Assembly: GCA_009695045.1 (NCBI GenBank)
Contig: SIBS01000002.1
Location: 26,774 to 90,773, forward strand
DNA length: 64,000 nucleotides
Direction: 5' to 3'
DNA from: Candidatus Levyibacteriota bacterium
Lineage (GTDB): Bacteria > Patescibacteriota > Microgenomatia > Levybacterales > UBA12049
The notes under the pieces were generated by a model. It was not told where the DNA came from. It was given only the letters and a program-made list of their open reading frames with translations, and searched no databases. Below are positions 1-60,669 of this stretch, in pieces. Position 1 is the first letter of the stretch. Each line of letters starts with the position of its first letter. Position numbers and translations under genes: made by a program.

Positions 1-789
1 CTAGATTATCATAAAAATTGGGATAATTATTTTATTACAAAAGCAAAACTTATTAAAAATGTAAAAATAGCAATATTAAATCGTGATGAGTTATATTTTG
101 ATAGATTGACTGAGCAAGCAAAAGGTAAAATTATTAGTTTTGGATTTTCATCAAAAGCTGAATATAATCAAAAAAAATTCCCATTAAATTTAAAAATTTT
201 AGGTGATTTTAATTTATTAAATGGTTGGGCAGCAGCAGCAGCGTGTAGTGAGGTCGGAATATCTTCAACTATAATTAAATCTGCTTTAAATAAATTTTCT
301 AGATTAAAAGGGAGAATGGAAGAAATTAAAAATAATAAAGGTCTTATGATTGTGGTAGATTTTGCTGCTACCCCTAATGGCTTAGAGCAGTCATTAAAAA
401 CTTTACGAAAAAAGACAAAGGGGAGACTTATTTCAGTTTTTGGATCAGCTGGGCAAAGAGATATTTCAAAAAGATTTTTAATGGGAAAAATTTCTGCTAA
501 ATTTGCCGATATAACGATAATAACAGCAGAAGATCCACGCGGAGAATTAAATAAGATTAATGAGCAAATTGCTAATGGCGCAAAAGAAGCAGGTGCAGAA
601 ATAAATAAAAACCTTTTTATTATTAATCGTCGTGAAAAAGCAGTAGCTTTTGCGATAAATAATATTTCGAAAATAGGAGATACAATTGGATTCTTTGGTA
701 AAGGTCATGAAGAATCAATGAATTATGATGGTAAAAAAGAAGAACTATATAGCGAATTTAATCAAATTAAAAAATCATTAAAAAAATAA
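1..789 (+). CDS. murE: UDP-N-acetylmuramoyl-L-alanyl-D-glutamate--diamino acid ligase MurE, C-terminal part (5' end lies outside the window)
   Basis: Frame 1 is open from nucleotide 1 with no upstream stop. The Mur-ligase C-terminal domain (VVDFAATPNGLEQSL...GRLISVFGSAGQRDISKRFLMGKISAKFADITIITAEDPRGE) aligns with the MurE pattern (VVDYAHTPDALEKAL...FGCGGDRDKGKR...TDDNPRTE). Confidence 0.7.
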   Translation, partial: LDYHKNWDNYFITKAKLIKNVKIAILNRDELYFDRLTEQAKGKIISFGFSSKAEYNQKKFPLNLKILGDFNLLNGWAAAAACSEVGISSTIIKSALNKFSRLKGRMEEIKNNKGLMIVVDFAATPNGLEQSLKTLRKKTKGRLISVFGSAGQRDISKRFLMGKISAKFADITIITAEDPRGELNKINEQIANGAKEAGAEINKNLFIINRREKAVAFAINNISKIGDTIGFFGKGHEESMNYDGKKEELYSEFNQIKKSLKK

Positions 790-3229: not shown

Positions 3230-4570
3230 ATGGATACATTTATAGTTCATGGAGGAAAAAAATTAAAAGGAGAAATTAGCGTATCTGGTGCAAAAAATGT
3301 TGCATTAAAAGTACTAGTTGCCTCATGTCTTACCGCTGATACAGTAATTATTCATAATATTCCTCATATTTCCGAAGTATCTATTATTATAAATATTATA
3401 AAATCACTTGGTGGAATAGTTGATATAGATGGTCATACTGTTAGTATTACTGTTGCTAGTGTTAATAATTTTGAAGTTCCCCTTGATAAGGCGGCTAAAA
3501 GTAGAAGTTCATCTCTGTTTATAGCTGCTTTATTAACTAGATTTGGAGAAGCAATTGTGCCAAATCCAGGTGGATGTCGTATAGGTGCTCGTCCGATAGA
3601 TCGTACAGTAGAAGGATTAAAGATATTGGGAGCTGAAATTGCTTATCATAGTGAGGATGGATATTTTCACGCAAAAATAAAAAATGGAGCCACTCGACTT
3701 CGTGGGTCTATATATAGATTTGATAAAAATTCTCATACCGGTACAGAGACATTAATTATAGCTGCTGTTTTAGCAGAGGGTAGGACAATAATTGAAAATG
3801 CTGCAGCTGAGCCTGAGGTAGATGAGCTCATCAGTCTTCTTGTTGCAATGGGCGCAAGGATTAAGCGAACGGAGTTGCGAACTATTATTATTGATGGTGT
3901 CAAGAAGCTAAATGGAGCAAGTTTTACGATTGGTCCTGATAGAAATGAAGTCATAACACTTGCTATAGCGGGTATTATTACTGGTGGAGATGTGATTATA
4001 AAAAATGTAAAAAAACAAGATATACTCGAATTTATTAAAAAAATTGAAATTGCTGGTGGCGGTTGTGAAATTGTGAAAAATGGAATTAGATTTTTTTCAA
4101 AAGGACCACTTTCTCCAACTGATATTACCACTGCTCCTTTTCCTGGTTTTATGACTGATTGGCAAAGTCCATGGGCAGTTCTTATGACGCAGGCGGAAGG
4201 CATATCCATAATACATGAGTCAGTATATGAATCACGTTTTAGTTATGTTGAAGAACTTAGGAAAATGGGTGCTCAAATAGAATTATTTAATCCAGAGGTA
4301 TTAAATCCACAAAAATTTTATAATTTTAATCTTAATGACGACAAGGAAGATAATTTTCATGCTGCAAAAATTTATGGACCTACAATTCTACATAATAGCA
4401 TAGTAACAATTTCTGATTTAAGAGCAGGAGCAACTATTGTTCTTGCGGCTCTAGCAGCAAAGGGAAAAAGCGTTATTTTCGGAGTAGATCAAATAGATAG
4501 GGGATATGAAAATTTAGAGATTCGTCTTAATCAATTAGGAGCAGATATAATTAGAGAGAAAAATGAATAA
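3230..4570 (+). CDS. murA: UDP-N-acetylglucosamine 1-carboxyvinyltransferase
   Basis: N-terminus (GGKKLKGEISVSGAKNVALKVLVAS), length and EPSP-synthase-like fold signature, with the active-site Cys region (GGCRIGARPIDR). Confidence 0.9.
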   Translation: MDTFIVHGGKKLKGEISVSGAKNVALKVLVASCLTADTVIIHNIPHISEVSIIINIIKSLGGIVDIDGHTVSITVASVNNFEVPLDKAAKSRSSSLFIAALLTRFGEAIVPNPGGCRIGARPIDRTVEGLKILGAEIAYHSEDGYFHAKIKNGATRLRGSIYRFDKNSHTGTETLIIAAVLAEGRTIIENAAAEPEVDELISLLVAMGARIKRTELRTIIIDGVKKLNGASFTIGPDRNEVITLAIAGIITGGDVIIKNVKKQDILEFIKKIEIAGGGCEIVKNGIRFFSKGPLSPTDITTAPFPGFMTDWQSPWAVLMTQAEGISIIHESVYESRFSYVEELRKMGAQIELFNPEVLNPQKFYNFNLNDDKEDNFHAAKIYGPTILHNSIVTISDLRAGATIVLAALAAKGKSVIFGVDQIDRGYENLEIRLNQLGADIIREKNE

Positions 4571-5312
4571 TAAAACTGCTGTAATCATATTGGCTGGAGG
4601 TCGTGGAAAGCGAATGCAGTCAAAAAATATAAATAAAGTAGCACTTTCCGTGGGTAATAGGCCAATGATTGTGCATATTGTTGATCTTTTTGTATCCATT
4701 GGCATAAATATAATAATAGTAGTAATTGGCTATGCTAAAAAATCTGTAATAAATGCACTTATTGATTTTCCAGTTATATTTGCAGAACAAAAAAAGCGCC
4801 TAGGCACAGCACATGCAGTTAAATGTGGCTTAAGGGAGCTTCCGGAAAATATCTCTAATGTATTAGTTTTGCAAGGTGATGATTCTGCATTTTATTCAAA
4901 AAAATTATTGCAATCACTTTTAGAAATACATCTTAAAGATAATGCAGATTTGACTTTTCTCACAATAGAAGTTGATAATCCTTATGGATTGGGTAGAATT
5001 ATTAGAGATAAATCAAATAAAATAATAGCAATTGTTGAAGAAAAAGATGCAAATGATGAGCAAAAAAAGATTAAAGAAATAAATCCAGCTTGCTATGTAT
5101 TTCGAGTAGAATTTTTGAAAAAATATATAAATAAAATTAAAAAAAGTCTTGTCACTAAAGAATATTATTTAACAACCCTTATAGATATAGCAAAGCAAAA
5201 AAATAAAATAATATCTAACGTAATGGGTGGTAATCTAATGTGGCGTGGAATTAATACAAAAGAAGAATTAGCTGAAGCAGAAAGATTATTTTTGCAGAAA
5301 AAAATAATATGA
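4563..5312 (+). CDS. glmU: Sugar-1-phosphate nucleotidyltransferase (GlmU N-terminal, uridyltransferase-like domain) as a separate ORF
   Basis: N-terminal motif AVIILAGGRGKRMQS matches the LAAGxGTRM motif of NDP-sugar pyrophosphorylases. A left-handed beta-helix ORF follows directly, with an ATGA overlap. Confidence 0.7.
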   Translation: MNNKTAVIILAGGRGKRMQSKNINKVALSVGNRPMIVHIVDLFVSIGINIIIVVIGYAKKSVINALIDFPVIFAEQKKRLGTAHAVKCGLRELPENISNVLVLQGDDSAFYSKKLLQSLLEIHLKDNADLTFLTIEVDNPYGLGRIIRDKSNKIIAIVEEKDANDEQKKIKEINPACYVFRVEFLKKYINKIKKSLVTKEYYLTTLIDIAKQKNKIISNVMGGNLMWRGINTKEELAEAERLFLQKKII

Positions 5313-5944
5313 AATTTAATACAGAAAATTATTTTTTACTAGATAATTTTTATTATAAAGATATATTTAATAATATTGAAAATATTTGGGAAGTATTGCC
5401 AAAGCTTGAAGAGTATTTATCGTCTCTATTTATTGATGGAAAAGTTATTGGAAATTATAAAGATAAAAAAAATATTTATATAGGGGAAGGCACAGTTATT
5501 CATGAAGATGTTAATATAGAAGGACCAGTTGTCATTGGAAAAAATTGCCTTATTACGCATGGTTCTTATATTCGATCAGGATGCTTGATTGGCGATAATG
5601 TTCGAATTGGCCATGGCGTGGAAATAAAAAGATCTATATTTCTTAATAACTCAATAGTTGCGCATTTAAATTATATTGGTGATAGTATTATTGGAAATAG
5701 TGTAAATATTGCAGGTGGAGCAATGTTGGCTAATCTCCGTTTTGATAAAAAAGATGTAATACTAAGATATGGAGATAAAATAATTAGTACAGGTCTGCAA
5801 AAATTTGGAGCAATATTGGGTGATAATGTTAGCATAGGTGCTAATGCAGTTCTAAATCCAGGAACATTGCTTGGTAAAAGGGTGATTGTTTATCCGTTAC
5901 AATTTGTGAAAGGTGTTTATATAGAAAATGAGATTATTAGATAG
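5309..5944 (+). CDS. Hexapeptide-repeat (left-handed beta-helix) acyltransferase, GlmU C-terminal acetyltransferase-like domain as a separate ORF
   Basis: Repeated [LIV]-G-x-x-x-x hexapeptides (IGKNCLITHGSYIRSGCLIGDNVRIGHGVEIKRS...IGDSIIGNSVNIAGGAMLAN...LGDNVSIGANAVLNPG). Confidence 0.65.
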   Translation: MKFNTENYFLLDNFYYKDIFNNIENIWEVLPKLEEYLSSLFIDGKVIGNYKDKKNIYIGEGTVIHEDVNIEGPVVIGKNCLITHGSYIRSGCLIGDNVRIGHGVEIKRSIFLNNSIVAHLNYIGDSIIGNSVNIAGGAMLANLRFDKKDVILRYGDKIISTGLQKFGAILGDNVSIGANAVLNPGTLLGKRVIVYPLQFVKGVYIENEIIR

Positions 5945-6431
5945 TGCTAAAAAAATAATGATATTGTTCGATATAGACTATACATTATTTGATACAGAAA
6001 ATTTTAAACAATCAAATCTTAAAAGTCATTTAATCTATCCAGAAGTAAAAGATGTACTTTCAAGTTTAGATAAAATTGCTGTGCTAGGAATATTATCAGA
6101 AGGGGATATTGTTTTTCAAATGAAAAAACTTAAGAGGTGTAAGATTGATAATTTTTTCTCTGATAAACATATACATATTATTTTACAAAAAAATAGTACG
6201 ATGTATGAGATTCTTGATATATATAAAAATAATAGAATATTTATAGTAGATGATAAACTTTCTTTTCTTAGAGAAATTAAATTGTATATGCCTTCACTTT
6301 TTACTATCTGGGTAAAACGAGGGCCATATGCAATGAATAGGCAATCTTTTAATGATTTTACACCAGATGCAGCTATAATAAATCTGACATTTATTAATAA
6401 TATTATTAGAGAAAGAATGGGTGTTAATTAA
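5928..6431 (+). CDS. Small HAD-superfamily hydrolase/phosphatase
   Basis: HAD motif I (FDIDYTLFD, i.e. DxDxT) near the N-terminus and a motif IV-like IVDDK. 167 aa. Confidence 0.55.
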   Translation: MRLLDSAKKIMILFDIDYTLFDTENFKQSNLKSHLIYPEVKDVLSSLDKIAVLGILSEGDIVFQMKKLKRCKIDNFFSDKHIHIILQKNSTMYEILDIYKNNRIFIVDDKLSFLREIKLYMPSLFTIWVKRGPYAMNRQSFNDFTPDAAIINLTFINNIIRERMGVN

Positions 6432-6434
6432 ATT

Positions 6435-8198
6435 ATGTGTGGAATATTTGGATATATTGGTAATCAAAATAATGCAGCTGAATCCACATTGGAGGGGTTG
6501 AAATTATTAGAATATAGAGGATATGATTCTTGGGGTATTGCCGTAAAGGATGGTAAAAATATTATCGTGGAGAAACATGTGGGTAAAATTGGTCAAGCAA
6601 AAACATCTCTGCCCAAAAGCTCACTCGGAATTGGTCATACTAGATGGGCAACTCATGGTGGAGTAACTGTGGAAAATTCGCATCCACATCTAGATTGTAG
6701 GAAAGAAATTGCAGTTATTCATAATGGTATTATAGAAAATTTCAAAGATTTAAAAAATGAATTACTGGCAAAAAATCATATATTTCTGTCTGAAACAGAT
6801 ACAGAAATTTTGCCACATCTTATTGAAGAATATCTAAAGACAGAAGAATTTTCATCCGCAGTTAGGGATGCATTTAATAGATTAAAGGGTTTAAATGCTG
6901 TTGTTGTTGCATATTCGCCCTCAGAAGAGATAATTGCTGCTAAAACAGGATCACCATTAGTAGTGGGATTAGGCGTAAATGAATTTTATGTCGCATCAGA
7001 TGTTTCTGGAATAATAAATCATACTCGTAGAATATTATTTGTAGAAGATAATCAAATGGTTATTTTAGGTAAAAAATTAAAATTAATTAGTTTATCAAGC
7101 GGTGATGAGATTCAGCCAGTATTTAATGATATTGACTGGAAATTTGAGCAATCAGATAAAGGCGATTTCAAGCATTTTTTTATGAAAGAAGTAAGTGAGC
7201 AGCCAAAAGTAGTAAAAAATATAGCATTAAATTACAAAGCTGAATCGGAAAAATTGGCAGATCTTATTGATAAGGCATTTGGGACTTTTATGCTGGGATG
7301 TGGAACAGCATCTTACGCGGCATTGGCAGGGACATACCTTTTTTCTAGAATTGCAAAAAAACATATTAATTTTTCAATTGGATCTGAATTTATGTATCTT
7401 GAGGATTATTTAACGCAAAAAAGTCTTATTATTCCAATTTCTCAAAGCGGTGAAACAATTGACGTAGTTGAGCCTGTTGCAAAAGCACTGAAAAAAGGAG
7501 CTAAAATTGCAGCAATAATAAATGTATTGGGCTCTACTCTTTATAGGCAAGCAGATTATAAATTCCTACTCGGAGCAGGTCCAGAGAAAGCAGTTGTAGG
7601 AACAAAAAGTTTTATTGCAATGATTGCAATGCTAATTTTAACCGCTTATACCCTAGCTAAGAAGCAATCAAAAGGTAAAGATCTTCTTATTAAGAGTGCG
7701 GAAAATATTGAAAATATTTTAAAAGTTGATTTTATTGAAAAGATAAAAATTATTGCTGATGATTTGAAAAATAAAGAACACATTTATATTATTGGGAGAG
7801 GATTATCATATGCTACAGCAGTTGAAGCAACATTAAAAATTAAAGAAACAAGCTGTATACATGCAGAAGGTTTTGCTGGGGGAGAATTAAAGCATGGCGT
7901 AATTGCGCTTATTGAAAAAGGTACACCATGCATTGTGTTTGCTCCAAATGATGAGACCTATGATGATATTATTTCCAATGCTGAAGAAATAAATGCTCGC
8001 GGAGGATTTATTATAGGAATTGGTCCTAAAAATAATGATGTATTTGATAGATTTTTACAAACTGATGATATCGGTGAGGCCACAATGATTCCTCAAGTGG
8101 TAATCTCTCAAATTTTAGCATATCAGCTTGCTCTCAAGCGAGGCATAGAAGATCCAGATAAGCCAAGAAATCTTGCTAAAAGTGTTACAGTTAAATGA
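6435..8198 (+). CDS. glmS: Glutamine--fructose-6-phosphate aminotransferase (isomerizing)
   Basis: N-terminal nucleophile MCGIFGY (Cys2), a glutaminase domain, then two SIS domains. 587 aa; C-terminus ends with the typical ...TVK. Confidence 0.92.
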   Translation: MCGIFGYIGNQNNAAESTLEGLKLLEYRGYDSWGIAVKDGKNIIVEKHVGKIGQAKTSLPKSSLGIGHTRWATHGGVTVENSHPHLDCRKEIAVIHNGIIENFKDLKNELLAKNHIFLSETDTEILPHLIEEYLKTEEFSSAVRDAFNRLKGLNAVVVAYSPSEEIIAAKTGSPLVVGLGVNEFYVASDVSGIINHTRRILFVEDNQMVILGKKLKLISLSSGDEIQPVFNDIDWKFEQSDKGDFKHFFMKEVSEQPKVVKNIALNYKAESEKLADLIDKAFGTFMLGCGTASYAALAGTYLFSRIAKKHINFSIGSEFMYLEDYLTQKSLIIPISQSGETIDVVEPVAKALKKGAKIAAIINVLGSTLYRQADYKFLLGAGPEKAVVGTKSFIAMIAMLILTAYTLAKKQSKGKDLLIKSAENIENILKVDFIEKIKIIADDLKNKEHIYIIGRGLSYATAVEATLKIKETSCIHAEGFAGGELKHGVIALIEKGTPCIVFAPNDETYDDIISNAEEINARGGFIIGIGPKNNDVFDRFLQTDDIGEATMIPQVVISQILAYQLALKRGIEDPDKPRNLAKSVTVK

Positions 8199-8920
8199 AT
8201 AAAAATTCTTTAAATAAAAAAATTCTGCCTATTATTATTTTGCACGGATGGGGATTAAGCACTCTGGTTTATAAAAATATTGTAAAAATTCTGAAGAAGA
8301 GAAATCACAGAGTTTATGTATTTGATTTTCCAGGATTTGGAGAAGAACCATTAGGAAATAATAGAGTTCTAAGTGATTATGTCATTTTTTTAAAAAATTA
8401 TTTAGAAAAAAGAAAAATTAAGAAATGTATATTAATAGGTCATTCTTTTGGTGGAAGGATTGCATTAAAATTTTCAATTAAATATCCTATTAATGTTGAT
8501 AAAATTATTCTTACTGGTGTTCCGGTGATTCGTCATAATGGAATGAAGCAAATTATAGCAGGTATCATAGCTTTTTTTGGAAAAAAAATAATATGTATTT
8601 TTCCTAAGTTTTTAGAAATTTTATTTAGGAAATTACTTTATCGTTTGATTGGGGAATCGGATTATATTAGGGCAGGAAAACTTAAAGATTTGTTTACTAA
8701 TATAATTACAGAAGATATATCGGGTTATTTTCGTGATTCTATTGTTCCAATATATTTAATTTGGGGAGAGAGTGACTCAATCACACCAGTATCAGATATA
8801 TCTATTATGAAAAAAATAAGACCAAATATAAAATATATTATTATTCCCAATACTGGACATCGATTACCATATGAAAATTCATTTATTTTTGCAAATGAAT
8901 TAGAGAACTATATTCTATGA
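8195..8920 (+). CDS. Alpha/beta-fold hydrolase (esterase/lipase-like)
   Basis: ILHGWG oxyanion region and nucleophile elbow GHSFGG; a C-terminal GHRLP segment is consistent with the catalytic His. Confidence 0.6.
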   Translation: MNKNSLNKKILPIIILHGWGLSTLVYKNIVKILKKRNHRVYVFDFPGFGEEPLGNNRVLSDYVIFLKNYLEKRKIKKCILIGHSFGGRIALKFSIKYPINVDKIILTGVPVIRHNGMKQIIAGIIAFFGKKIICIFPKFLEILFRKLLYRLIGESDYIRAGKLKDLFTNIITEDISGYFRDSIVPIYLIWGESDSITPVSDISIMKKIRPNIKYIIIPNTGHRLPYENSFIFANELENYIL

Positions 8921-10518
8921 ATAACATAATTTTTATTTTTACGTCTTTATCTTTTTTTATATGGGTAATAAGAAATACATTTTATTGGGTATATCTCTGG
9001 CAATTAAAAGAATATCGTCTAGATAGAGTTCTTATTCATTTTAAGGAAACTTATCAAGGAAAAAGAATTTTACTATCTCCATTTTTATGGATAAAGATCC
9101 TTCTTATTATAGGGTATGGATATATCGTTTTTAATAATGAATATTTATTATTTTATCAAATATTTATTTCATTAATTTTTTATTATGAGGCTTTTTCTGT
9201 TCTGCAAGAAATAATTTTTCATAGATTACGTCGTCCATCGTCAACTATTAAAGGGGTAATCATGTGTAGCTTAACAATATTTTTTATTTCAATTTTATTT
9301 ACTATTCCTTTTGTTGATAAATATTTATGGCTATTATTACTTGAGTGTTTAATACCATTTATTATTTATATTATTGTTTTTGCTTTTTCTTTCCCAACGG
9401 AAATATATCATGATTATAAAATTGAAAAAGCAAGAAAAAAATTAGCTGATCATAAAAAAATACTTGTTATTGCAATAACTGGAAGCTATGGAAAGAGTTC
9501 CACAAAAGAATTTGTATCACAAATTTTAGAAAAAAAATTTCGATTATTAAAAACTCAAGGTAGTAATAATACTCCAATTGGTATTGCTAATACTATTCTT
9601 GATGGGCTTAAAAATAATACAGAAATACTTGTTACAGAAATGGGTGCATATAAAAAGGGTGAAATATTAGAACTTTGTGAAATTGTTAATCCAGAGATTG
9701 GAATTATTACAGGTATTAACGATCAGCATCTTTCTCTTTTTGGTAGCTTGAGCAATACAATGCAAGCAAAATATGAACTTATAGATTCATTGCCAAAAAA
9801 TGGTCTTGCATTGTTTAATGGTAATAATAATAATGCAAAAAAATTATATGAAAAAACAAAAATAAATAAAGTTCTTTATGAGGTTAAATTTTCAGTAAAT
9901 GATGTTAAGAGGAATATCTTCGCTGAGAATATAGTTACTAAAAAAAATTCTGTTTCTTTTGATGTTATTTTAAAAAGAAAAAAAATTCATTTTGAAGCAC
10001 CAGTTATTGGTGCACATAACATAGAAAACATTCTTCCAGGCATCTTTATCGGAAACAGGCTTGGTATTTCAGATTTTGATTTGGTAAAATCTGTTTCATC
10101 TTTACAATCACTTCCTAAAACAATGACTAAGCAAGAATTGGAAAATGGAACTATAGTTATTGATGATACATTTAATACTAGTCAACAAGCTGTAAGAGCT
10201 GCTTTGTCCTATCTTAAGGTGTTTAAGCAGAAAAGAATTCTTGTATTTCAACCCATGATAGAGCTTGGGGTAAGTGCAGGAGATGAGCACTATAGGGTTG
10301 CTGGTGATATGGTTAAAATATGTGATTATATTTTTGTTACAAATGAAAATTTTTTAAATCAAATGAGAAAAGGTGCTTCTTTAATAAATTCTAAATGTGA
10401 AATAAGAAAAGCTTCTATCGTAGAGATAGCGAAATTTATCCAGAATAAGGTTCATAAAGGAGACGTTGTATTATTTGAAGGAAAAGAAGCGGGAATGGTT
10501 TTGAATAAAATTTTATAA
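8917..10518 (+). CDS. murF: UDP-N-acetylmuramoyl-tripeptide--D-alanyl-D-alanine ligase with an N-terminal ~170-aa polytopic membrane extension
   Basis: Mur-ligase P-loop ITGSYGKSSTKE and the MurF-type motif ITGINDQHLSLFGSL (compare ITNIGxAHLExFGS). About five hydrophobic helices precede the catalytic domains (IIFIFTSLSFFIWVI, ILLIIGYGYIVF, LLFYQIFISLIFYY, VIMCSLTIFFISILFTIPFV, LWLLLLECLIPFIIYIIVFAF). Confidence 0.8.
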   Translation: MNNIIFIFTSLSFFIWVIRNTFYWVYLWQLKEYRLDRVLIHFKETYQGKRILLSPFLWIKILLIIGYGYIVFNNEYLLFYQIFISLIFYYEAFSVLQEIIFHRLRRPSSTIKGVIMCSLTIFFISILFTIPFVDKYLWLLLLECLIPFIIYIIVFAFSFPTEIYHDYKIEKARKKLADHKKILVIAITGSYGKSSTKEFVSQILEKKFRLLKTQGSNNTPIGIANTILDGLKNNTEILVTEMGAYKKGEILELCEIVNPEIGIITGINDQHLSLFGSLSNTMQAKYELIDSLPKNGLALFNGNNNNAKKLYEKTKINKVLYEVKFSVNDVKRNIFAENIVTKKNSVSFDVILKRKKIHFEAPVIGAHNIENILPGIFIGNRLGISDFDLVKSVSSLQSLPKTMTKQELENGTIVIDDTFNTSQQAVRAALSYLKVFKQKRILVFQPMIELGVSAGDEHYRVAGDMVKICDYIFVTNENFLNQMRKGASLINSKCEIRKASIVEIAKFIQNKVHKGDVVLFEGKEAGMVLNKIL

Positions 10519-11777
10519 TGAATTTATATATTAAGCGTCCAATTGCAATTGAAATTTCTCCTAATACAGCTTTTGATGATGTTAGGATTGCTTGGGGAAT
10601 ATTTTTCACCCCATGGCGTTATATTAATGGTAATAGCGTAATGCTTCTTGAACAATGGTTTCGTCAATATTTTTCTGTTTCAAGTGCTATATCTTTCGTA
10701 AGTGGTAGAGGTGCATTATTTATTATCTTACAAGCGCTTGGAGTTAATAAGGATGATGAAGTCATTATTCAATCATTTACATGTGCCGTAGTTCCAAATG
10801 CAATTATTGCTCGAGGAGCAAAGCCAATTTATGTTGATATTAATTTATCTCTTACAATGGATCCAGATAAGTTAGAAAAGGAGATTACAAAAAAAACTAA
10901 AGCTATTATTGTGCAGCATACATTTGGAATCCCATCAGATATTGAAAAAATTGTCTCAATTGCAAATAAATATGAAATTCCCATAATTGAAGACTCTGCT
11001 CATGTAATTGGTGGAATATGGAAAAATAAAAAATTAGGATCAATTGGAAAAGTTGGATTTTTTAGCTTTGGAAGAGATAAGGCTTTTTCATCTGTTTTTG
11101 GCGGAATGGTTATAACTAATGATATTATGTTTGGTAAAAAAATAAGATCTCTACATCGTGTACAAAAAAATCCTTCATTTTTATGGATTCTACAGCAATT
11201 ATTTCACCCAATTGCATTTTATATTATTCTTCCACTTTATGATACTCTTTATATTGGAAAAGTAATTTTAATTATTTTACAAAAATTACATTTTCTTTCT
11301 TTTTCTGTAACAAATAAAGAGAAGGATGGTGGTTTCGAAAAAATACTTTTGTCAAAATTACCAAATGCATTAGCAATACTTGCGCTTCATCAGGTAAGAA
11401 AAATAAAAGAATATAATGCAAAACGAAATAGTATTACGGAATTATATATTAAAGAGCTTTCAGACCCAATGTTTTCTTTTCCATGGAGAGTAAGTAGTTC
11501 ACTTCTTAGATTTCCTGTTTTAATAAATGGCAATAGAGATGATCTTATGTTATTTATGAAAAAACATAATATTTATTTAGGAAATTGGTATACTGAATGT
11601 ATAGGTCCATCGGGGACAGATTTCGAAAAAATATATTATCAAAGAAGTAATTTTCCTATATCTTTAATGATATCTCAAAAGATTATTAATTTGCCAACTT
11701 ACCCAACGATGAAAATTGCTGATGCTAAGCGAATAATTCAAGTATTACAAATATATGCTAGAAATAAAAGAAGTTAA
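10518..11777 (+). CDS. DegT/DnrJ/EryC1/StrS-family PLP-dependent aminotransferase
   Basis: Fold-type I sugar-aminotransferase pattern: DEVIIQSFTCAVVPNAI...GAKPIYVDIN...AIIVQHTFGIP...IIEDSAHVIGG...GKVGFFSFGRDKAFSS (PLP-Lys in FSFxxxK). Confidence 0.7.
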   Translation: MNLYIKRPIAIEISPNTAFDDVRIAWGIFFTPWRYINGNSVMLLEQWFRQYFSVSSAISFVSGRGALFIILQALGVNKDDEVIIQSFTCAVVPNAIIARGAKPIYVDINLSLTMDPDKLEKEITKKTKAIIVQHTFGIPSDIEKIVSIANKYEIPIIEDSAHVIGGIWKNKKLGSIGKVGFFSFGRDKAFSSVFGGMVITNDIMFGKKIRSLHRVQKNPSFLWILQQLFHPIAFYIILPLYDTLYIGKVILIILQKLHFLSFSVTNKEKDGGFEKILLSKLPNALAILALHQVRKIKEYNAKRNSITELYIKELSDPMFSFPWRVSSSLLRFPVLINGNRDDLMLFMKKHNIYLGNWYTECIGPSGTDFEKIYYQRSNFPISLMISQKIINLPTYPTMKIADAKRIIQVLQIYARNKRS

Positions 11778-12774
11778 CGATAAAAAACAATGGACTAATT
11801 TTCTTTCAAAAAAAGAAATTATATACTATCCACTTTTTCAATCATGGAATTGGGGCGAGGTTCAAAAAGCACTAGGATTCTCTATAATTAGAATTGGTTT
11901 ATTTGATAATGATAAATTAGTAGCTGTTTGTTTAATCATAGATATCATCGCAAAGCGTGGGCATTATCTACATCTTCGTCATGGGCCAGTTATCTTAGAT
12001 AAAAATATCGTTTATATTAATGCAATAGTTAATTATGTAAAGAAAATTGCTAAGGAAAAGAAAGCAAAATTTATTAGAATGAGTCCATTATGGGAAAAAA
12101 AGATTGTTGATATAAAATATCTAAAAAATAATGGATGCATTGATGCTCCAATTTATAATATGGATGCTGAATATTGTTGGGTACTAGATATATCAAAATC
12201 TGAAAAAGAACTTCTTTCGGACATGCGTAAGTCTCATCGTTATCTTATACGTAAATCACTTAAAATGCATATTGAGATATCAAAAACAAATGATGTTAAA
12301 GCAGTAGATGATTTCCTTTTATTATATAAAGATCTCTCTGATCGAAAACATTTTGTTCCACATAGAGGAATTAGAGAGGAAGTGATGTTTTTTGGACAAG
12401 ATAATGAAGCACTTCTTTTATTAGCTAGCTGGAATAATGAAATAGCAGGTGGAGCTGTTATTGATTTTGTTGGAAAAATGGCAATATATCATCATGGAGC
12501 AACTCTCTCAAGGTATCGAGATATTCCCCTTTCCTATATTATTCAGTGGCAGGCTATTTTGGAAGCAAAAAAGCGAGGTATGAAAATATATAATTTTTGG
12601 GGAATTGCACCGCTAAATCAGCCTAATCATCCATGGCAAGGTCACACACTTTTTAAAATGGGATTTGGTGGAGAAGTTTGTGAATTTGTACATGCCCAAG
12701 ACATACCGTTATCACTTGATTATTGGCGAAGTTGGATTATTGAAAAAATAACAAAGAAGCTGAAGGGATATTAA
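11755..12774 (+). CDS. FemABX-family peptidoglycan peptidyltransferase (aminoacyl-tRNA-dependent)
   Basis: Conserved Fem-family C-terminal motif YIIQWQAILEAKKRGMKIYNFWGI (compare YLLQWEAIKYAKEKGYKxYDFGGI). About 340 aa with two GNAT-like halves. Confidence 0.7.
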   Translation: MLEIKEVNDKKQWTNFLSKKEIIYYPLFQSWNWGEVQKALGFSIIRIGLFDNDKLVAVCLIIDIIAKRGHYLHLRHGPVILDKNIVYINAIVNYVKKIAKEKKAKFIRMSPLWEKKIVDIKYLKNNGCIDAPIYNMDAEYCWVLDISKSEKELLSDMRKSHRYLIRKSLKMHIEISKTNDVKAVDDFLLLYKDLSDRKHFVPHRGIREEVMFFGQDNEALLLLASWNNEIAGGAVIDFVGKMAIYHHGATLSRYRDIPLSYIIQWQAILEAKKRGMKIYNFWGIAPLNQPNHPWQGHTLFKMGFGGEVCEFVHAQDIPLSLDYWRSWIIEKITKKLKGY

Positions 12775-12854: not shown

Positions 12855-13862
12855 ATGGGACAACTTTTAGGACTTCTTATTATGTCTTTTTTTATATCTG
12901 GAATTCTGTTCATTCCTTTTATAGATTTTCTCTATAAAATAAAACTTCAGAGACAAAAACAAATCACAAAAGACATGTTTAATAAGCATACGCCAATTTT
13001 TGATAAATTTAATTCTTGGAAAGTTGGCACACCGTTTGGAGGAGGTATTCTTATAATAATTGTAGTTACATTGCTTACATTTTGGTCATATGGAGTCTTT
13101 GGTGTAAAGGTAAAGCCATGGGAATTATTTGTATTATTATTTTCATTTATAGGATTTGGATTATTAGGATTATATGATGATATTAAAAAATTATTCCCTG
13201 ACAATAAAGCATTTTTTGGTCTTTCTTTTACTGTAAAATTTCTTATTCAATGGATAATTGCTTTTATTTTAGCTTCTGTATTATATATTAATCTTGGCTA
13301 TTCATTTATTTTTATTCATGGATTTGGATTGGCAAATATTGGATTTTTATATATTCCTATTGCTGCATTTATTATTGTATCTTTTGCTAATGCATTCAAT
13401 ATTGCTGATGGTTTAGATGGACTTGCTTCTGGGCTTCTTTTAATTTGTTTAGGATCTTTTTTAGCAATTTCTTCAACAGCATTAGATCAGGGATTGGGCA
13501 TGTTTATATCTATTCTTATGGGAAGCGTTGGTGCTTTTTTATATTTTAATATTTATAAAGCTCGAATATGGCTTGGAGACGTTGGCTCAATGGCGCTTGG
13601 TGCATCACTTGGAATAATAGGTCTTCTAACAGGAAAAATTATCGCTGTTGCATTTATTGGTGGCGTTTTTGTATTAGAGGCAGGTTCATCACTTTTACAA
13701 ATTTTGAGTAAAAAATTCTTCGGAAAAAAAGTATTTCCTGTATCTCCGCTTCATCTTTATTTACAACGACATGGATGGGAGGAGCCAAAAATTGTCATGC
13801 GTGCTTGGTTACTTGGATTTCTCTTTGCTATTATTGGTCTATACTTCGCTTTCATCGGTTAA
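12855..13862 (+). CDS. mraY: Phospho-N-acetylmuramoyl-pentapeptide transferase
   Basis: Polytopic membrane protein with the NAFNIADGLDGLASG motif and GDVGSMALG. Confidence 0.92.
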   Translation: MGQLLGLLIMSFFISGILFIPFIDFLYKIKLQRQKQITKDMFNKHTPIFDKFNSWKVGTPFGGGILIIIVVTLLTFWSYGVFGVKVKPWELFVLLFSFIGFGLLGLYDDIKKLFPDNKAFFGLSFTVKFLIQWIIAFILASVLYINLGYSFIFIHGFGLANIGFLYIPIAAFIIVSFANAFNIADGLDGLASGLLLICLGSFLAISSTALDQGLGMFISILMGSVGAFLYFNIYKARIWLGDVGSMALGASLGIIGLLTGKIIAVAFIGGVFVLEAGSSLLQILSKKFFGKKVFPVSPLHLYLQRHGWEEPKIVMRAWLLGFLFAIIGLYFAFIG

Positions 13863-20074: not shown

Positions 20075-20665
20075 ATGAGTAAATATGTAAAATGGTTTAT
20101 AATAATATTAATTTTTATTTATTTTTTTATATTTTTTGATAAAAATATTTTTCAAAATAATACTGTTATTAGTAGGCCAATAACTGCATCAATTATTCCT
20201 CAATCAAATGATGTTCATTCCCCTGACGGTTCATTTAGCATTGTAATGCAATCAAAGGAAAGCAATAGTGGTTTTTTTACCTACGAATTTTTTATTGAAA
20301 ATATATCTGGAGGTAAAAAAAAATTACTTTTTGCAACCAGTGGAGAGGGTGGAGAATTTTGGATTACTCCAAATGCATGGTCACCAGACAATAATTATAT
20401 ATATATATTGGAAAGAAAAAATAATAAATTAAATGCAATGATTTTTAAATCATCAGGTGAAAGTTTTGCAAATGGTGATGTTTATATTGATACATCGCCA
20501 ATTTTTATTAGTCGTAGAACGGGATATGAAATAGTTGATATAACTGGTTGGGATTCTCCTACGTTATTGCATGTAGTAACAAAAAATCATCAAGATATTG
20601 GTCCTTCTTTTTGGTTTGATGTTCCAAGTAAAACTTTTATGCAATTATATAATCGTTCCCTATAG
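20075..20665 (+). CDS. Hypothetical signal-anchored/exported protein
   Basis: N-terminal hydrophobic anchor (WFIIILIFIYFFIFF), then a beta-rich region with a TolB-like WSPDNNYIY motif. No confident family assignment. Confidence 0.45.
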   Translation: MSKYVKWFIIILIFIYFFIFFDKNIFQNNTVISRPITASIIPQSNDVHSPDGSFSIVMQSKESNSGFFTYEFFIENISGGKKKLLFATSGEGGEFWITPNAWSPDNNYIYILERKNNKLNAMIFKSSGESFANGDVYIDTSPIFISRRTGYEIVDITGWDSPTLLHVVTKNHQDIGPSFWFDVPSKTFMQLYNRSL

Positions 20666-21337
20666 TGTCTTTAGCATTTTTTCAGTAGCTTTTATACTTA
20701 AATCTTCGCCATTATAAATAAATTCAAATATTATTTCATTATTTTTATTATTTTTTATGTAAAGATTTTGTAATTGATTTACCGAACCCTTATCATAGGG
20801 ATTACTATAAATAGATACACTGAATTCGCTTGGAATCTCGGGTATCTTCATAAAATCATGGCGTGTTGGAGCAGTTGCTTCAAGATTAGCATCTTTAGCA
20901 ACCCAATACAGTAGAGATGCTAGATGACAAACTCCATCTCCAGCCAAGTATCCATCAGATTTAAATCCTTCTGATAAATTAAAATGTGAATTGGTCGTTT
21001 TATCTATTTTATTTTGATATTCTGGTAGAACATCATCGTGAAATGCAAAAATTTCATCAGGTTTCAATACCATGCTATACTTAAATGGTTTATTAATTTT
21101 ATCCCAATCAATATTATTTGAATCTATTTTTTTATCAGAAGTATATTTAATTGTAAGGAGAATATTTTCTTTAAAAACATTATTTACAAAAGAATTACCA
21201 TATCTATTATTTAATGAAAAAGTATGAGACGAGATCTCCTTTACTACAAATTGTTTTGGAATAATTTGTTTTACTGGTGATTCAGTAAAAAATGGAATAA
21301 ATAAAAGTGATGCAAATGTCATAATCTTTATAGACAT
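20660..21337 (-). CDS. VanW-like domain exported protein
   Basis: Signal peptide (MSIKIMTFASLLFIPFF); VanW-type motif GYLAGDGVCHLASLLYWVAKDANLE (compare GGGVCQVSTTLYNA). Confidence 0.6.
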   Translation of the reverse strand: MSIKIMTFASLLFIPFFTESPVKQIIPKQFVVKEISSHTFSLNNRYGNSFVNNVFKENILLTIKYTSDKKIDSNNIDWDKINKPFKYSMVLKPDEIFAFHDDVLPEYQNKIDKTTNSHFNLSEGFKSDGYLAGDGVCHLASLLYWVAKDANLEATAPTRHDFMKIPEIPSEFSVSIYSNPYDKGSVNQLQNLYIKNNKNNEIIFEFIYNGEDLSIKATEKMLKTL

Positions 21338-21466
21338 AGTATCCTATAAGATGTAGATTATACTATACTATAAGATTAATGTCAAGTAGTTTTTAAGCTC
21401 ATTTTAATGTTTAGGTACATAAATATCATCATTTACTTTTTAATAATAATGCTATACGCTTGAATC

Positions 21467-22174
21467 ATGCTAAGCATTGGATTAAAATCTGTATCATGGA
21501 CTCGTTCTAGTGTTATTTTATTTTTATTTATAATAGCCTTGATATGGAGAATATTTGTATATGGATTTGATTTTAAAAATAAGTGTGCTAATTCAATCAG
21601 TTGTATAAAAGATATTTCTGGAATATTTCAGATAGGGAAAAAAAATATATTTTTGTCTCGATCTATTACTTCTCTGCCATATGTATCTAATAAAAATAAT
21701 ATACATACTGTGCTTGGCAATACTACTTCAATTGGAGAAAAGCATATATTCATTGATTTAGATACGCAGCAACTTTATGCATATGAGGATAAAATACAGG
21801 TCTATGCTTTTCCTGTATCAACAGGTAAATGGGGCAAGACTCCAACTGGAACTTTTAGGATATGGATTAAAATAAGAAATGCTCATATGGAAGGAGGTTC
21901 TGGGGATGATTATTATAATCTTTATAACGTACCCTATACAATGTTTTTTTCAAATGAAAATGTTGATGCTAGTCTAGGTTTTAGCATTCATGGTGCCTAT
22001 TGGCACAATAATTTTGGTTATCCGATGAGTCATGGATGCATAAATTTACGTCCTGAAGATGCTGAGAAAATTTATGGCTGGGCTGATCCTCCAACACGGG
22101 GAATTTCTACTCATTCAACAACTAAAAATAAAGGAACATTAATTACTATTTATGGTGAGCCTCATATGAATTAA
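21467..22174 (+). CDS. L,D-transpeptidase (YkuD domain), membrane-anchored
   Basis: N-terminal TM; catalytic region HGAYWHNNFGYPMSHGCINL carries the YkuD H...SHGC(I/V)(R/N)L motif. Confidence 0.8.
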   Translation: MLSIGLKSVSWTRSSVILFLFIIALIWRIFVYGFDFKNKCANSISCIKDISGIFQIGKKNIFLSRSITSLPYVSNKNNIHTVLGNTTSIGEKHIFIDLDTQQLYAYEDKIQVYAFPVSTGKWGKTPTGTFRIWIKIRNAHMEGGSGDDYYNLYNVPYTMFFSNENVDASLGFSIHGAYWHNNFGYPMSHGCINLRPEDAEKIYGWADPPTRGISTHSTTKNKGTLITIYGEPHMN

Positions 22175-22307
22175 ATATCTATTAAATTTTCCTATTTGTC
22201 TATGAATTATTTTAATATTAATCCATAGAAACTTATTTAGAATTTATTATTGTTTATTATACTTTTTGCCTATTGTATCTATAATCTAATACTATACAAT
22301 AATTTTT

Positions 22308-22967
22308 ATGCCTATTATGCCAAAAATTATTCGCTCATCACGTCTCTCTATGAGTATAAGAATTAATTTAATGGGAGAAGTTATCGTTCGAGCTCCTAAA
22401 TTTATCCCCACATTTTTAATAAAAAAATTTATCTTATCAAAGCAAAATTGGATTGATGCATCACTTAAAAAAGTAAATATTTATCATAAAAAAGAAAAGC
22501 AATATATTGAAGGTGAGGAATTTATGTATTTAGGAAATAAATACATATTTCAATTTATAGATACTGATAAAATTTTTATAAGTGATAATAAATTATTTTT
22601 TCCAAAAATATTATTATTTAGAGCAGAAAAAGAAATTAAAAATTGGTATATACGACTCGCAAAAGATAAGATTACAGAACGACTAGATCATAAAGCAAAA
22701 GAAATGGGTATGCAATATAAGAGCATTTTATTCTCTGATACTCAATCTAAGTGGGGTACATGTTGGCCAGATAATGCTTTACAATTTAACTGGAGACTTA
22801 TAATGGCGCCATTGATGGTATTGGATTATGTTGTAATTCATGAATTGGCACATACAAAAGAAAAAAATCATAGTAATAAATTTTGGAGCATAGTATCTAT
22901 ATATACTCCAGCATGGAAACAGCATAGGAAATGGCTTAATAATAACTCTTATTTATTAAATTATTAA
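22308..22967 (+). CDS. DUF45/YgjP-family zinc metallohydrolase (WLM/SprT-like)
   Basis: C-terminal FNWRLIMAPLMVLDYVVIHELAHTKEKNHSNKFWSIV matches the YgjP pattern NWRLxxAPxxVIDYVVVHELAHLxExNHSxxFW with an HExxH zinc site. Confidence 0.75.
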   Translation: MPIMPKIIRSSRLSMSIRINLMGEVIVRAPKFIPTFLIKKFILSKQNWIDASLKKVNIYHKKEKQYIEGEEFMYLGNKYIFQFIDTDKIFISDNKLFFPKILLFRAEKEIKNWYIRLAKDKITERLDHKAKEMGMQYKSILFSDTQSKWGTCWPDNALQFNWRLIMAPLMVLDYVVIHELAHTKEKNHSNKFWSIVSIYTPAWKQHRKWLNNNSYLLNY

Positions 22968-23013
22968 TAAATTAATCTGAATATATTATTGATGGTTTTT
23001 TATAGTTTATAAA

Positions 23014-23619
23014 TTATGTAAATGTCATTTTTTTATAAATATTACGAGTGACCTCAACATCTTTTTTGCAATATTCGCATATTTCTTTAATTCGACCATC
23101 TTCATATGCCTTAGCAACATCTTTGCCTTCCATTGCTCCACCTTTTGATGATGGAATATTCAATGCTTTCGCTAAAGAATCTAAGCTAATTTTTGCATAC
23201 TGATCCCATTTTGCCCATTCCTTCATGAGATCATACATGGGATTATTTCGATATCTGGCAAAAGTAAGATCCCTGGTAGGTTTTACTTCATTTATAATAG
23301 ATCTTTGATAAATAAATCTCATATCAAAATCTATAATATTGAAACCAACAAATAACTCAATTGTTTTAGCTATATCCCAAAATTGTTGGAGCATCTCTTT
23401 TTCAGTACCGCAAATTATTTGTATTTGACCATCATTAATAGCATAAGATATGCAAGCTATTCTCCCAAAAGCACCATCAAAACTAGTTTCTGCTATAAAT
23501 AGATCCAATTCTTTTACTTGCTTTCCATCATCAATTTTTTTTTGATGAATCTCAGCAAGCATAACATGCTTATTTTTATCTGCTGGTAGAGTTTCAATAT
23601 CAAAATATAATATATTCAT
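23014..23619 (-). CDS. DEDD-type 3'-5' exonuclease (RNase H-like fold, PolB-exonuclease-related; YprB/RNase_H_2-like)
   Basis: Exo I motif YFDIETLP at the N-terminus, internal FNIIDFDMRF (Exo II-like), and a C-terminal region with further acidic residues. 201 aa, stand-alone. Confidence 0.6.
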   Translation of the reverse strand: MNILYFDIETLPADKNKHVMLAEIHQKKIDDGKQVKELDLFIAETSFDGAFGRIACISYAINDGQIQIICGTEKEMLQQFWDIAKTIELFVGFNIIDFDMRFIYQRSIINEVKPTRDLTFARYRNNPMYDLMKEWAKWDQYAKISLDSLAKALNIPSSKGGAMEGKDVAKAYEDGRIKEICEYCKKDVEVTRNIYKKMTFT

Positions 23620-23730
23620 TATATTAGTATATAAATTTTTATACGAGTAATCAAGTTAATTTTAAAAAATAGTTTACATTGTTAATATAGTTCTTTATAA
23701 ATATTAATAATACCGTATAATATATTTATT

Positions 23731-24735
23731 ATGAATAATAATCGTTTTAATAATATAGATTTTATTCGAGCAATTGCAATTATCTGTGTTATCGCTACCC
23801 ATGTATATTCTCGTCATTTATTTGGTGAATTTAATATCTTAATTTGGAATTATTTACATTTTACTATTTTTATGTTTATTTTTTGTTCTGGCTACGTATT
23901 ATCATTGCGATATGAATTTGAATTTAATTCATGGAAACAAATACTCTCTTGGTATTTTAAAAGATCTCAAAGATTAATTATTCCATTTTATTGTTACCTT
24001 TTTGTACATTATTTATTATGGTATTTATTTCCACAATTTTTTGATGGCTTAGAATTAAATAATTCATTTAATTTTATAGTTCAATCAATTTTTCTAACAG
24101 GAGGAGTAAATGCTAATTGGTTGGTTCTGCTTTTTATACAGCTTACAGTCTTATTACCTTTACTTACAAAAATATATATTAAAAAAATTATAATAATATT
24201 TTATATTTTATTTTCTACATTTTTTACAATATATATTACTTTTATTCCATTTTCATATAATTTATCTCGTTATGTAATGTGGATACCGTGGTCATTAGCA
24301 TTATTGTTTTCCATTTACGCATCTAGGAATAAGATAAGTAATAAGAAATACATATCTCTGGCGATATTGTCAGGCATATTATTTTATTTATTTAATTTTT
24401 TACATCCATTTAATAAGTCTCTTTCTCTTTATGACCATAAATATCCATCAGATTTATATTATTTATCATATGAATTTTTTATTACATTTATTTTATTATC
24501 AATTAGCCAATCTTCATATTTGAAAAATTCATTTTTACAAAAATCATATGAATATATCAGTCATAAATCTTATTCTTTATATTTTATTCATTATATTGTT
24601 TTAGATTTTATATTTAAAGTAACAAATAATTATTATTTATTTTCAAATATTTTTATCCAATTTTTATTAATTTTATCTATAAGTCTTTTTACATGTTGGT
24701 TATTAGATAAATTATCTCGAATATTATTAATTTAA
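23731..24735 (+). CDS. Acyltransferase family 3 (OafA/OatA-like) integral membrane O-acyltransferase
   Basis: N-terminus FIRAIAIICVIATHV is the acyltransferase-3 signature with catalytic His; about 10 TM helices; extremely AT-rich. Confidence 0.7.
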   Translation: MNNNRFNNIDFIRAIAIICVIATHVYSRHLFGEFNILIWNYLHFTIFMFIFCSGYVLSLRYEFEFNSWKQILSWYFKRSQRLIIPFYCYLFVHYLLWYLFPQFFDGLELNNSFNFIVQSIFLTGGVNANWLVLLFIQLTVLLPLLTKIYIKKIIIIFYILFSTFFTIYITFIPFSYNLSRYVMWIPWSLALLFSIYASRNKISNKKYISLAILSGILFYLFNFLHPFNKSLSLYDHKYPSDLYYLSYEFFITFILLSISQSSYLKNSFLQKSYEYISHKSYSLYFIHYIVLDFIFKVTNNYYLFSNIFIQFLLILSISLFTCWLLDKLSRILLI

Positions 24736-24789
24736 TTATAATAATATTATCTAATATATTTTTATTTTTTTTTATATTATAATAGTCTA

Positions 24790-40654: not shown

Positions 40655-40756
40655 AAAAAATAATATTTCTTATATATCACCTTTTTATATATATATATTT
40701 TTTGTAGTTTATATATTATTCGATTATATACAATATCTTCTTTGCAGGGTTAAAAT

Positions 40757-60655: not shown

Positions 60656-60669
60656 AAATTTTATATTAA

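Follow-up and report, generated by a model that had tools for sequence, protein, structure and literature searches.

The question raised by this locus is what a pyridoxal 5'-phosphate (PLP) enzyme of the DegT fold contributes to cell-wall synthesis. In the 64-kb window studied here (the whole stretch of DNA analysed, to which all positions refer), the division and cell-wall (dcw) cluster of a bacterium of the Levyibacteriota, part of the Candidate Phyla Radiation (CPR), carries two plus-strand open reading frames (ORFs) between murF and mraY, one encoding a DegT-fold protein of 419 amino acids (aa) and the other a Fem-type transferase of 339 aa (Table 1). The ORFs and the family matches of their products bear out the first-pass annotation, made from the sequence alone, which had described such a pair in this slot with a 23-nt overlap (11755-11777). 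Both proteins align over their full length with homologues, so that neither the start codons nor the overlap are artefacts of ORF calling. The pair belongs to a set of genes which hundreds of CPR species retain, in some cases fused, and which is very probably a peptidoglycan-precursor unit of CPR bacteria. The explanation that we favour, with a probability of about 45%, is that this unit encodes a membrane-attached complex which finishes the stem peptide, and in which the PLP enzyme would act on an amino-acid amine.

Conservation of the gene pair and of its neighbours

The genes around the pair are tightly packed. The stop codon of murF and the ATG of the DegT-like gene have one base in common, the alpha/beta-hydrolase gene located upstream overlaps both glmS and murF by 4 nt, and an unbroken series of overlapping or abutting ORFs extends from glmU to fem (4563-12774). 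Gene order runs from mraZ, rsmH, a possible ftsL and ftsI, through murE, murC, murB, murA, a split glmU, a HAD-like gene and glmS, to the hydrolase gene, murF, the DegT-like gene, the Fem gene, mraY, ftsW, murG, an ftsQ-like gene, ftsA and ftsZ. LBMAG33, a metagenome-assembled genome (MAG) of Candidatus Levyibacteriota (CPR/Patescibacteria), encodes a protein with 100% identity to the DegT-like protein.

Relatives of the DegT-like protein were sought by scanning one genome per species, and at least 595 of them were confirmed by tblastn among the 600 pattern matches listed. Synteny was then counted on tblastn maps of the 80 best loci, each taken from a different species genome, and every count was restricted to loci with enough flanking sequence. 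These 80 loci are essentially all from CPR bacteria and include Levy-, Gottesman-, Woese-, Wildermuth-, Nealson-, Yanofsky-, Staskawicz- and Peregrinibacteria, among others, several of the automated taxon labels of the MAGs being clearly placeholders. MurF lies directly upstream of the DegT-like gene in 67 of 75 loci, and the alpha/beta-hydrolase gene is found upstream in 64 of 70. A Fem gene is present within 2.6 kb downstream in 67/70 loci, and is adjacent to the DegT-like gene or overlaps it in 42 loci; mraY is found within 5 kb downstream in 33/59.

The setting of the unit differs between lineages. It lies inside the dcw cluster in Microgenomates, while Parcubacteria-type loci carry it as a stand-alone block, in which lysS and serS are followed by the hydrolase gene, in some cases a second Fem gene, MurF, DegT, Fem and an ftsQ-like gene. 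A third arrangement consists of serS, a transglutaminase-like gene, DegT and Fem; MurF and the hydrolase are absent there, and a transglutaminase-like (Cys-His-Asp) protein replaces them (locus L049, 6042-6998; also L035, L036, L079 and L082). The DegT-Fem pair, which persists in this arrangement, is thus the core of the unit. The position of the pair ahead of MraY had been taken as following the order of the pathway, an argument which is weak since mraY follows in little more than half of the loci and since the unit also occurs outside the dcw cluster. That the pair stands between MurF and mraY is indeed a local accident; the stronger rule associates DegT with Fem and, in most cases, with MurF and a hydrolase of acyl-enzyme type. 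The conserved gene links run to MurF, Fem and the hydrolase.

Gene fusions were searched among 1.84 billion representative proteins. DegT-Fem fusions form four clusters (P0248, P0294, P0297 and P0303), MurF-DegT fusions, in which MurF is N-terminal, form three (P0305, P0336 and P0350), and a fusion of Transglut_core with DegT forms one (P0308). Five of the contigs that were read, which stem from two sequencing runs or more, carry the MurF-DegT fusion, and a DegT-Fem fusion placed between MurF and mraY was found in an NCBI MAG, showing that these fusions are not single sequencing errors. The pairing of a DegT-fold enzyme with Fem had been pointed out as unusual. It is so, and fusions of the two in some genomes make clear that it is functional.

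Other genes accompany the unit in part of the loci. In 23 Parcubacteria-type loci, lysS and serS lie directly 5' of the hydrolase-MurF-DegT-Fem block, serS being directly upstream in 23 loci (L026, L032, L033, L040, L041, L044, L046, L052, L057, L063, L074, L081 and L088 are included); this linkage may hint at the tRNA substrates of Fem, or may be plain synteny. No dedicated tRNA gene was found near the unit, the only tRNA genes, for tRNA-Val and tRNA-Thr, being far away. In Gottesmanbacteria, the gap between DegT and Fem holds genes for a metallo-beta-lactamase (MBL)-fold hydrolase, a membrane protein with CvpA and CAP domains, and a holin-like protein (Phage_holin_4_2) with four transmembrane segments (L017, L018, L039, L053, L059, L061, L066, L067, L071, L076, L078, L080 and L086). 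None of these is a sugar enzyme, and they were rejected as the missing partner of the DegT-like enzyme. A DAGK_prokar gene, of the diacylglycerol/undecaprenol kinase family, is located between Fem and mraY in 25 loci (e.g., L039, 10317-10691, and L087, 3426-3794). In the searchable literature we found no description of the unit, of the DegT-like subfamily or of a membrane-anchored MurF, a prior mention being nevertheless possible.

Proteins of the unit

The DegT-like protein matches the DegT_DnrJ_EryC1 family (PF01041) with 219.4 bits, for a cut-off of 19.8. Its AlphaFold2 (AF2) model has a predicted local distance difference test (pLDDT) score of 94, and all its best matches in the PDB are DegT-family aminotransferases, with 20-26% identity and template modelling (TM) scores, given as TMt, of 0.78-0.85 against DegT-family chains of canonical length. 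Residue conservation was counted across 258 members of the subfamily, down to about 32% identity. The residues of the PLP site are invariant or nearly so, namely the Schiff-base Lys188 (258/258), Asp159, the partner of the pyridine N1 (257/258), and Ser183, five residues before the Lys (256/258), which indicates that the DegT-like enzyme is catalytic. Cys89 (255/258) and Arg64 (256/258) are also near-invariant, as are Arg303 and Arg331.

The fold and the PLP-binding Lys, Asp and Ser are shared, at the same 20-26% identity, with sugar aminotransferases such as ArnB, QdtB, WlaRG, perosamine synthase and WbpE. The active site nevertheless differs from theirs at several canonical positions, which speaks against the aminated sugar proposed by the first-pass annotation. 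Cys89 aligns with the Phe (7b0d, QdtB) or Tyr (WlaRG, perosamine synthase) that stacks on PLP; the canonical T-F/Y/W stacking aromatic is not at its position, and an aromatic residue (F/Y87) stands two residues before the Cys. The spacing of Cys89, Asp and Lys agrees with that of Phe111, Asp182 and Lys211 of SerTA, Thr86 having also been used in this comparison (PMC11726168). Arg64 takes the place of the phosphate-loop Thr/Ser, and the acid of the (D/E)GG motif that follows the Lys is lost, with F194-G-G instead of DGG or EGG. In alignments to 7b0d, QdtB and perosamine synthase, an insertion of 47-49 residues follows the large domain, with two predicted helices (residues 221-240 and 246-256) and the conserved motifs HP, LGK and EK-G. 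We take its site to be the one where a loop of canonical enzymes enters the active site of the partner subunit. The insertion was considered as a general membrane anchor and rejected as such, being strongly hydrophobic in Levybacteria only (KD19 hydropathy of 1.8-2.25, versus 0.9-1.5 elsewhere) and amphipathic in the others. The NCBIfam equivalogs of the family (ArnB, PseC, LegC, WecE, DesI and RfbH) all scored far below their cut-offs, the best being ArnB with 154.9 for a required 631. Judged from its sequence, the DegT-like protein is a separate, uncharacterised subfamily, and probably not a classical nucleoside diphosphate (NDP)-sugar aminotransferase. In line with this, no 4,6-dehydratase and no 3- or 4-dehydrogenase that could make a keto-sugar was found in the window, and none came up repeatedly in the 80 loci or between DegT and Fem, so that the partner required for an aminated sugar is lacking from these regions.

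The Fem protein is a true member of FemABX with a Weissella-like architecture. It matches FemAB (PF02388) with 102.9 bits, for a cut-off of 24, and a profile of the CPR Fem proteins retrieved from the PDB Staphylococcus aureus FemX (1e-26), FemA (8e-17), Weissella FemX (2e-12) and streptothricin Fem-like enzymes (2e-9). Its AF2 model (pLDDT 92) is closest to S. aureus FemX (TM 0.82), Weissella FemX (0.75-0.77 in both directions) and FemA. Profile and fold matches thus agree with the earlier assignment to the peptidoglycan-type enzymes rather than to generic GNAT proteins. Residues F300, K301, G303, F304, G305 and G306 are invariant in 29 Fem members and make up an F-K-x-G-F-G-G motif, the F-K part of which aligns with the FKK motif of FemA and of S. 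aureus FemX, the conserved Lys being Lys305 in Weissella FemX. S. aureus FemX/FmhB, the lipid II:glycine glycyltransferase, and FemA are the closest enzymes by profile; they possess, however, a coiled-coil arm of about 65 residues, also present in FemB, and nothing in the CPR protein corresponds to this arm (residues ~236-299 of S. aureus FemX). Weissella viridescens FemX, a uridine diphosphate (UDP)-N-acetylmuramic acid (MurNAc)-pentapeptide:L-Ala transferase of the same family, is likewise a compact tandem GNAT protein without coiled coil (335 aa, versus 339 here) and keeps the catalytic-type Lys motif, and the precedent named by the first-pass annotation holds for this architecture. Identity is only about 15%, and it is the family profile that finds Weissella FemX, the window protein alone having no match to it at E<=1. 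In contrast to the CPR protein, Weissella FemX is neither partnered with nor fused to a PLP enzyme or MurF. The second Fem gene present inside the unit in some Parcubacteria is as expected for a bridge of several residues.

MurF had been read as the last soluble step of the pathway, which was not confirmed, as its first ~170 residues form four to five hydrophobic helices (hydropathy peaks at residues 13, 59-63, 117-133 and 141-155) and gave no Pfam match at E<=5. The best NCBIfam match, TIGR01143 murF (5.6e-68; 229.8 bits, under the cut-off of 288.6), begins at model position 68 and at residue 176 of the protein. A predicted membrane domain thus replaces UDP-binding domain 1. This domain is matched by tblastn in most CPR loci (MurF_TM matches from L003 to L086), and the protein is the sole MurF candidate in the dcw clusters examined. 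Because MurF appears to be anchored in the membrane, the time at which the precursor is modified cannot be deduced from gene order, and a modification before lipid I formation, as put forward by the first-pass annotation, does not follow. Given this domain, one may ask if CPR MurF acts at the membrane or on a substrate bound to a lipid.

The alpha/beta-hydrolase has only generic esterase or S33-aminopeptidase relatives, those found in the PDB being generic esterases. MurE, of which the C-terminus is encoded at the start of the window, is shortened (394 aa for the full protein on the ENA contig), gives no Pfam match for an N-terminal Mur-ligase domain, and shows EDPR in place of the DNPR specificity motif of meso-diaminopimelate (mDAP)-type enzymes. 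The amino acid at position 3 of the stem peptide is uncertain because of this motif and of the missing domain.

Table 1. Features of the unit and of the rest of the 64-kb window, with the evidence for each.
Feature	Position	Strand	Evidence
MurE, C-terminus	1-789		
glmU, split, with the following HAD-like ORF	4563-6431		
alpha/beta-hydrolase, first gene of the unit, 241 aa, GHSFGG nucleophile elbow	8195..8920	+	PF00561 1.3e-23; PF12146 (S33 aminopeptidase-like) 3.2e-17
MurF N-terminal membrane domain (predicted), ~170 aa, 4-5 hydrophobic helices	8917..9426	+	hydropathy; in place of Mur-ligase domain 1
MurF ligase body (Mur_ligase_M + Mur_ligase_C)	9427..10518	+	PF08245 1.1e-38; PF02875 3e-10
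Divergent DegT-fold PLP enzyme, 419 aa	10518..11777	+	PF01041 1.1e-64
Invariant Cys89 codon of the DegT-like enzyme	10782-10784	+	
Schiff-base Lys188 codon of the DegT-like enzyme	11079-11081	+	
Helical insertion of the DegT-like subfamily, residues ~216-284	11163..11369	+	gap in alignments to canonical enzymes
Short FemX-type transferase, 339 aa, tandem GNAT, without coiled coil	11755..12774	+	PF02388 2.3e-29
Catalytic-type Lys301 codon of Fem, F-K-x-G-F-G-G motif	12655-12657	+	
mraY, neighbour here, not a constant member of the unit	12855..13862	+	TIGR00445 7.6e-50
Wall-modifying cluster	20660-25683		
IleRS gene followed by second SEDS gene	26751-30631		
Region resembling a replication terminus	~40000-44000		GC skew, gene strand, GC content
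MurT (PF08353) and GatD (GATase_3), adjoining gatCAB	59888-61998	-	

Possible reaction of the PLP enzyme

Four parts would be associated in one membrane-attached complex, namely the alpha/beta-hydrolase (transglutaminase-like in some lineages), MurF with its membrane domain, the remodelled DegT-fold PLP enzyme and the short FemX-type transferase. MurF would add the C-terminal dipeptide and so complete the pentapeptide, while Fem would move a tRNA-borne L-amino acid onto the free amine carried by residue 3 of the stem peptide; the likeliest candidate for this amino acid is Ser, because of the linkage of serS to the unit in 23 loci. Within the complex, the PLP enzyme would perform chemistry on an amino-acid amine and not on a nucleotide-sugar. 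We favour a conversion of the aminoacyl residue handled by Fem, either on the tRNA or after transfer, for which the candidate reactions are beta-chemistry on Ser and an L-to-D epimerisation in which Lys188 and Cys89 would provide the two bases. The hydrolase would probably edit or trim the product. We tentatively propose that this PLP step, by a DegT enzyme physically coupled and sometimes fused to a membrane-anchored MurF and to a FemX-type transferase, is a step of precursor synthesis in CPR bacteria not known from other bacteria, and that it acts directly on a residue of the stem peptide or cross-bridge or on the aminoacyl-tRNA supplying this residue; L-Ser or L-Ala brought by tRNA could, for example, become a bridge residue of D-configuration or one modified in another way. 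That the enzyme acts precisely on the residue handled by Fem is more doubtful, this part of the scheme being suggested by analogy. The first-pass annotation had offered a non-canonical amino-acid donor for the branch, which is unlikely for an enzyme that depends on aminoacyl-tRNA.

The role favoured for the PLP enzyme is indeed drawn entirely from analogous systems. SelA and SepCysS are PLP enzymes that act on aminoacyl-tRNA. DhpH, an enzyme of dehydrophos biosynthesis, joins a PLP-dependent domain and a Fem-like tRNA-dependent domain in one polypeptide, as do the CPR DegT-Fem fusions; it is, however, a secondary-metabolite enzyme of Streptomyces which acts on a phosphonate amino acid and not on a cell-wall precursor, and its PLP domain is not, to our knowledge, of the DegT family. 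The Fem-like domain of DhpH acylates an amine (PMC12945691), and a member of the "sugar aminotransferase" family has the side chain of an amino acid as its substrate (PMC11726168). Some operons combine a hydrolase gene with that of a tRNA-dependent aminoacyl transferase, examples being those of aminoacyl-phosphatidylglycerol synthases (aaPGS, MprF) with AhyD, VirJ or PesT, where the hydrolase acts on the product of the transferase (PMC6103681). The CPR unit has the same association of transferase and hydrolase, but it concerns peptidoglycan, whereas the aaPGS operons act on membrane lipids and have no PLP enzyme.

Several points weigh against this scheme. The placement of Cys89 relative to C4' is deduced from alignment only, and F/Y87 may still stack on PLP. 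We know of no racemase or epimerase in the DegT family. Simple housekeeping synteny may explain why serS and lysS adjoin the unit, a supply of D-Ala would account equally well for the MurF-DegT fusions, and a keto-sugar partner could be encoded elsewhere in the genome.

The main rival explanation is that the DegT-fold enzyme supplies D-Ala, either as a non-homologous replacement of alanine racemase or as a D-Ala-forming transaminase, and so feeds D-Ala-D-Ala to MurF, Fem being then an ordinary branch transferase within the same complex. We regard it as unlikely. The fusions with an N-terminal MurF do parallel a bifunctional MurF/alanine racemase (NF008897, among the MurF matches) in which the order of the domains is the same, although the PLP domain of the latter is a fold-type III racemase, whereas the CPR proteins combine a fold-type I DegT-like enzyme with a membrane-domain MurF. 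An invariant Cys able to be the second base would also suit a PLP-dependent racemase. Moreover, neighbouring loci provide for D-Glu by glutamate racemase MurI, but show no visible provision for D-Ala: tblastn (E. coli DdlB as query) and motif scans gave no Ddl and no Alr motif in 1.2 Mb of CPR loci, restricted to the flanks of the unit, plus the window. This survey does not extend to whole genomes, however, and Van-ligase (Ddl-family)-like matches have been reported to be abundant in CPR genomes (PMC8651080). The explanation is above all weakened by the coupling of the enzyme, which is tightest with Fem and not with MurF, since DegT stays with Fem where MurF is elsewhere, and four clusters of DegT-Fem fusions are found. 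MurI (motifs DSGVGGL and GCTHYP) is encoded just after mraY in several CPR dcw clusters, namely in L016 (11754-12518) and in L038, L054, L055, L076 and L086; a supply of D-Glu by the PLP enzyme is unlikely, MurI being present in several of the same loci. A tRNA-dependent synthesis of D-Ala-D-Ala, in which the PLP enzyme, the esterase and Fem would replace Alr and Ddl, was kept as a remote idea only, because Fem is closest to the branch enzymes of peptidoglycan and because Ddl-family matches are reported to be common in CPR bacteria.

It is improbable that the enzyme is a nucleotide-sugar aminotransferase, providing UDP-N-acetylglucosamine (GlcNAc), MurNAc or another glycan precursor with an amino group which Fem may then aminoacylate, and we graded this reading the weakest of the catalytic options. 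Membership of PF01041, structural neighbours that are all NDP-sugar aminotransferases, the proximity of glmS and glmU just upstream in Microgenomates, and the ability of Fem-like enzymes to acylate the amines of amino sugars (Sbb17/streptothrisamine structures are among the fold matches) are in line with it. They are opposed by the lack of a keto-sugar-making enzyme in the window and of a recurrent one in the 80 loci or the DegT-Fem gaps, by the scores far under every NCBIfam equivalog cut-off, by the alteration of the stacking aromatic, the (D/E)GG acid and the inter-subunit loop, and by fusion partners which are MurF and Fem, not sugar enzymes. A transaminase that converts a side-chain carbonyl at position 3, free or in the precursor, into the amine acylated by Fem would keep to the chemistry of the DegT family, and is nevertheless very improbable. 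A DegT-family enzyme acting on N2-acetylornithine or on a carrier conjugate is documented (PMC11726168), and DhpH follows a similar logic, its Fem-like domain acylating an amine that stems from an earlier pathway step (PMC12945691). The atypical EDPR motif of MurE would also be in accordance with such a role. No kinase or reductase for the side-chain aldehyde is linked to the unit, however, and semialdehyde substrates of MurE are, as far as we know, unprecedented. The least probable of these readings, with hardly any chance of being correct, makes the DegT fold a non-catalytic adaptor, which would bind the UDP-sugar end, compensate for the missing domain 1 of MurF, and bridge MurF and Fem. A MurF without UDP-binding domain, the binding of NDP-sugars by DegT enzymes and the fusions on both sides of the DegT-like enzyme would agree with this, but the invariance of Lys188, Asp159, Ser183 and other PLP-site residues would not be expected of a dead enzyme.

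Other features of the window and significance of the unit

Additional genes of the window deal with the cell wall. The split glmU consists of a nucleotidyltransferase ORF and a hexapeptide ORF, and a weakly HAD-like ORF of 167 aa, which Levybacteria loci retain between glmU and glmS, might replace GlmM. MurT and GatD, the lipid II isoglutamine synthase pair, are encoded next to gatCAB, and a wall-modifying cluster comprises VanW, a YkuD L,D-transpeptidase, a YgjP-like metallopeptidase, Acyl_transf_3 and a polysaccharide deacetylase. MurT/GatD, YkuD, VanW, the deacetylase and Acyl_transf_3 point to a modified peptidoglycan of Gram-positive style. A second SEDS (FtsW/RodA) gene directly follows that of IleRS, a pairing also found in a distant Levybacteria relative (L003, 14219-17245). 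Further along the window, the GC skew of the plus strand passes from positive to negative, gene strand flips at about 43.5 kb and GC content falls to 0.21-0.23, and this region looks like a replication terminus.

The favoured reading, a membrane-attached complex that finishes the stem peptide, combines known and new elements: Fem-type branching was already known, while the PLP partner and the MurF architecture are unprecedented. A large part of bacterial diversity belongs to CPR/Patescibacteria, and our search of the literature found no paper joining muropeptide analysis with CPR bacteria. The unit implies that their precursor pathway contains, throughout the lineage, an additional remodelled PLP enzyme and a re-engineered MurF with a membrane domain, both tied to a tRNA-dependent branch transferase. 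The proteins of the unit are small, and soluble or amenable to anchoring, which makes them directly testable in vitro. The chance that the PLP step constitutes a new cell-wall reaction is substantial. An action of the enzyme on the precursor or on aminoacyl-tRNA would represent a new class of reaction in cell-wall synthesis and a new activity of the DegT fold; if the enzyme is instead a substitute for alanine racemase, it would constitute a clean, non-homologous replacement of an antibiotic target.

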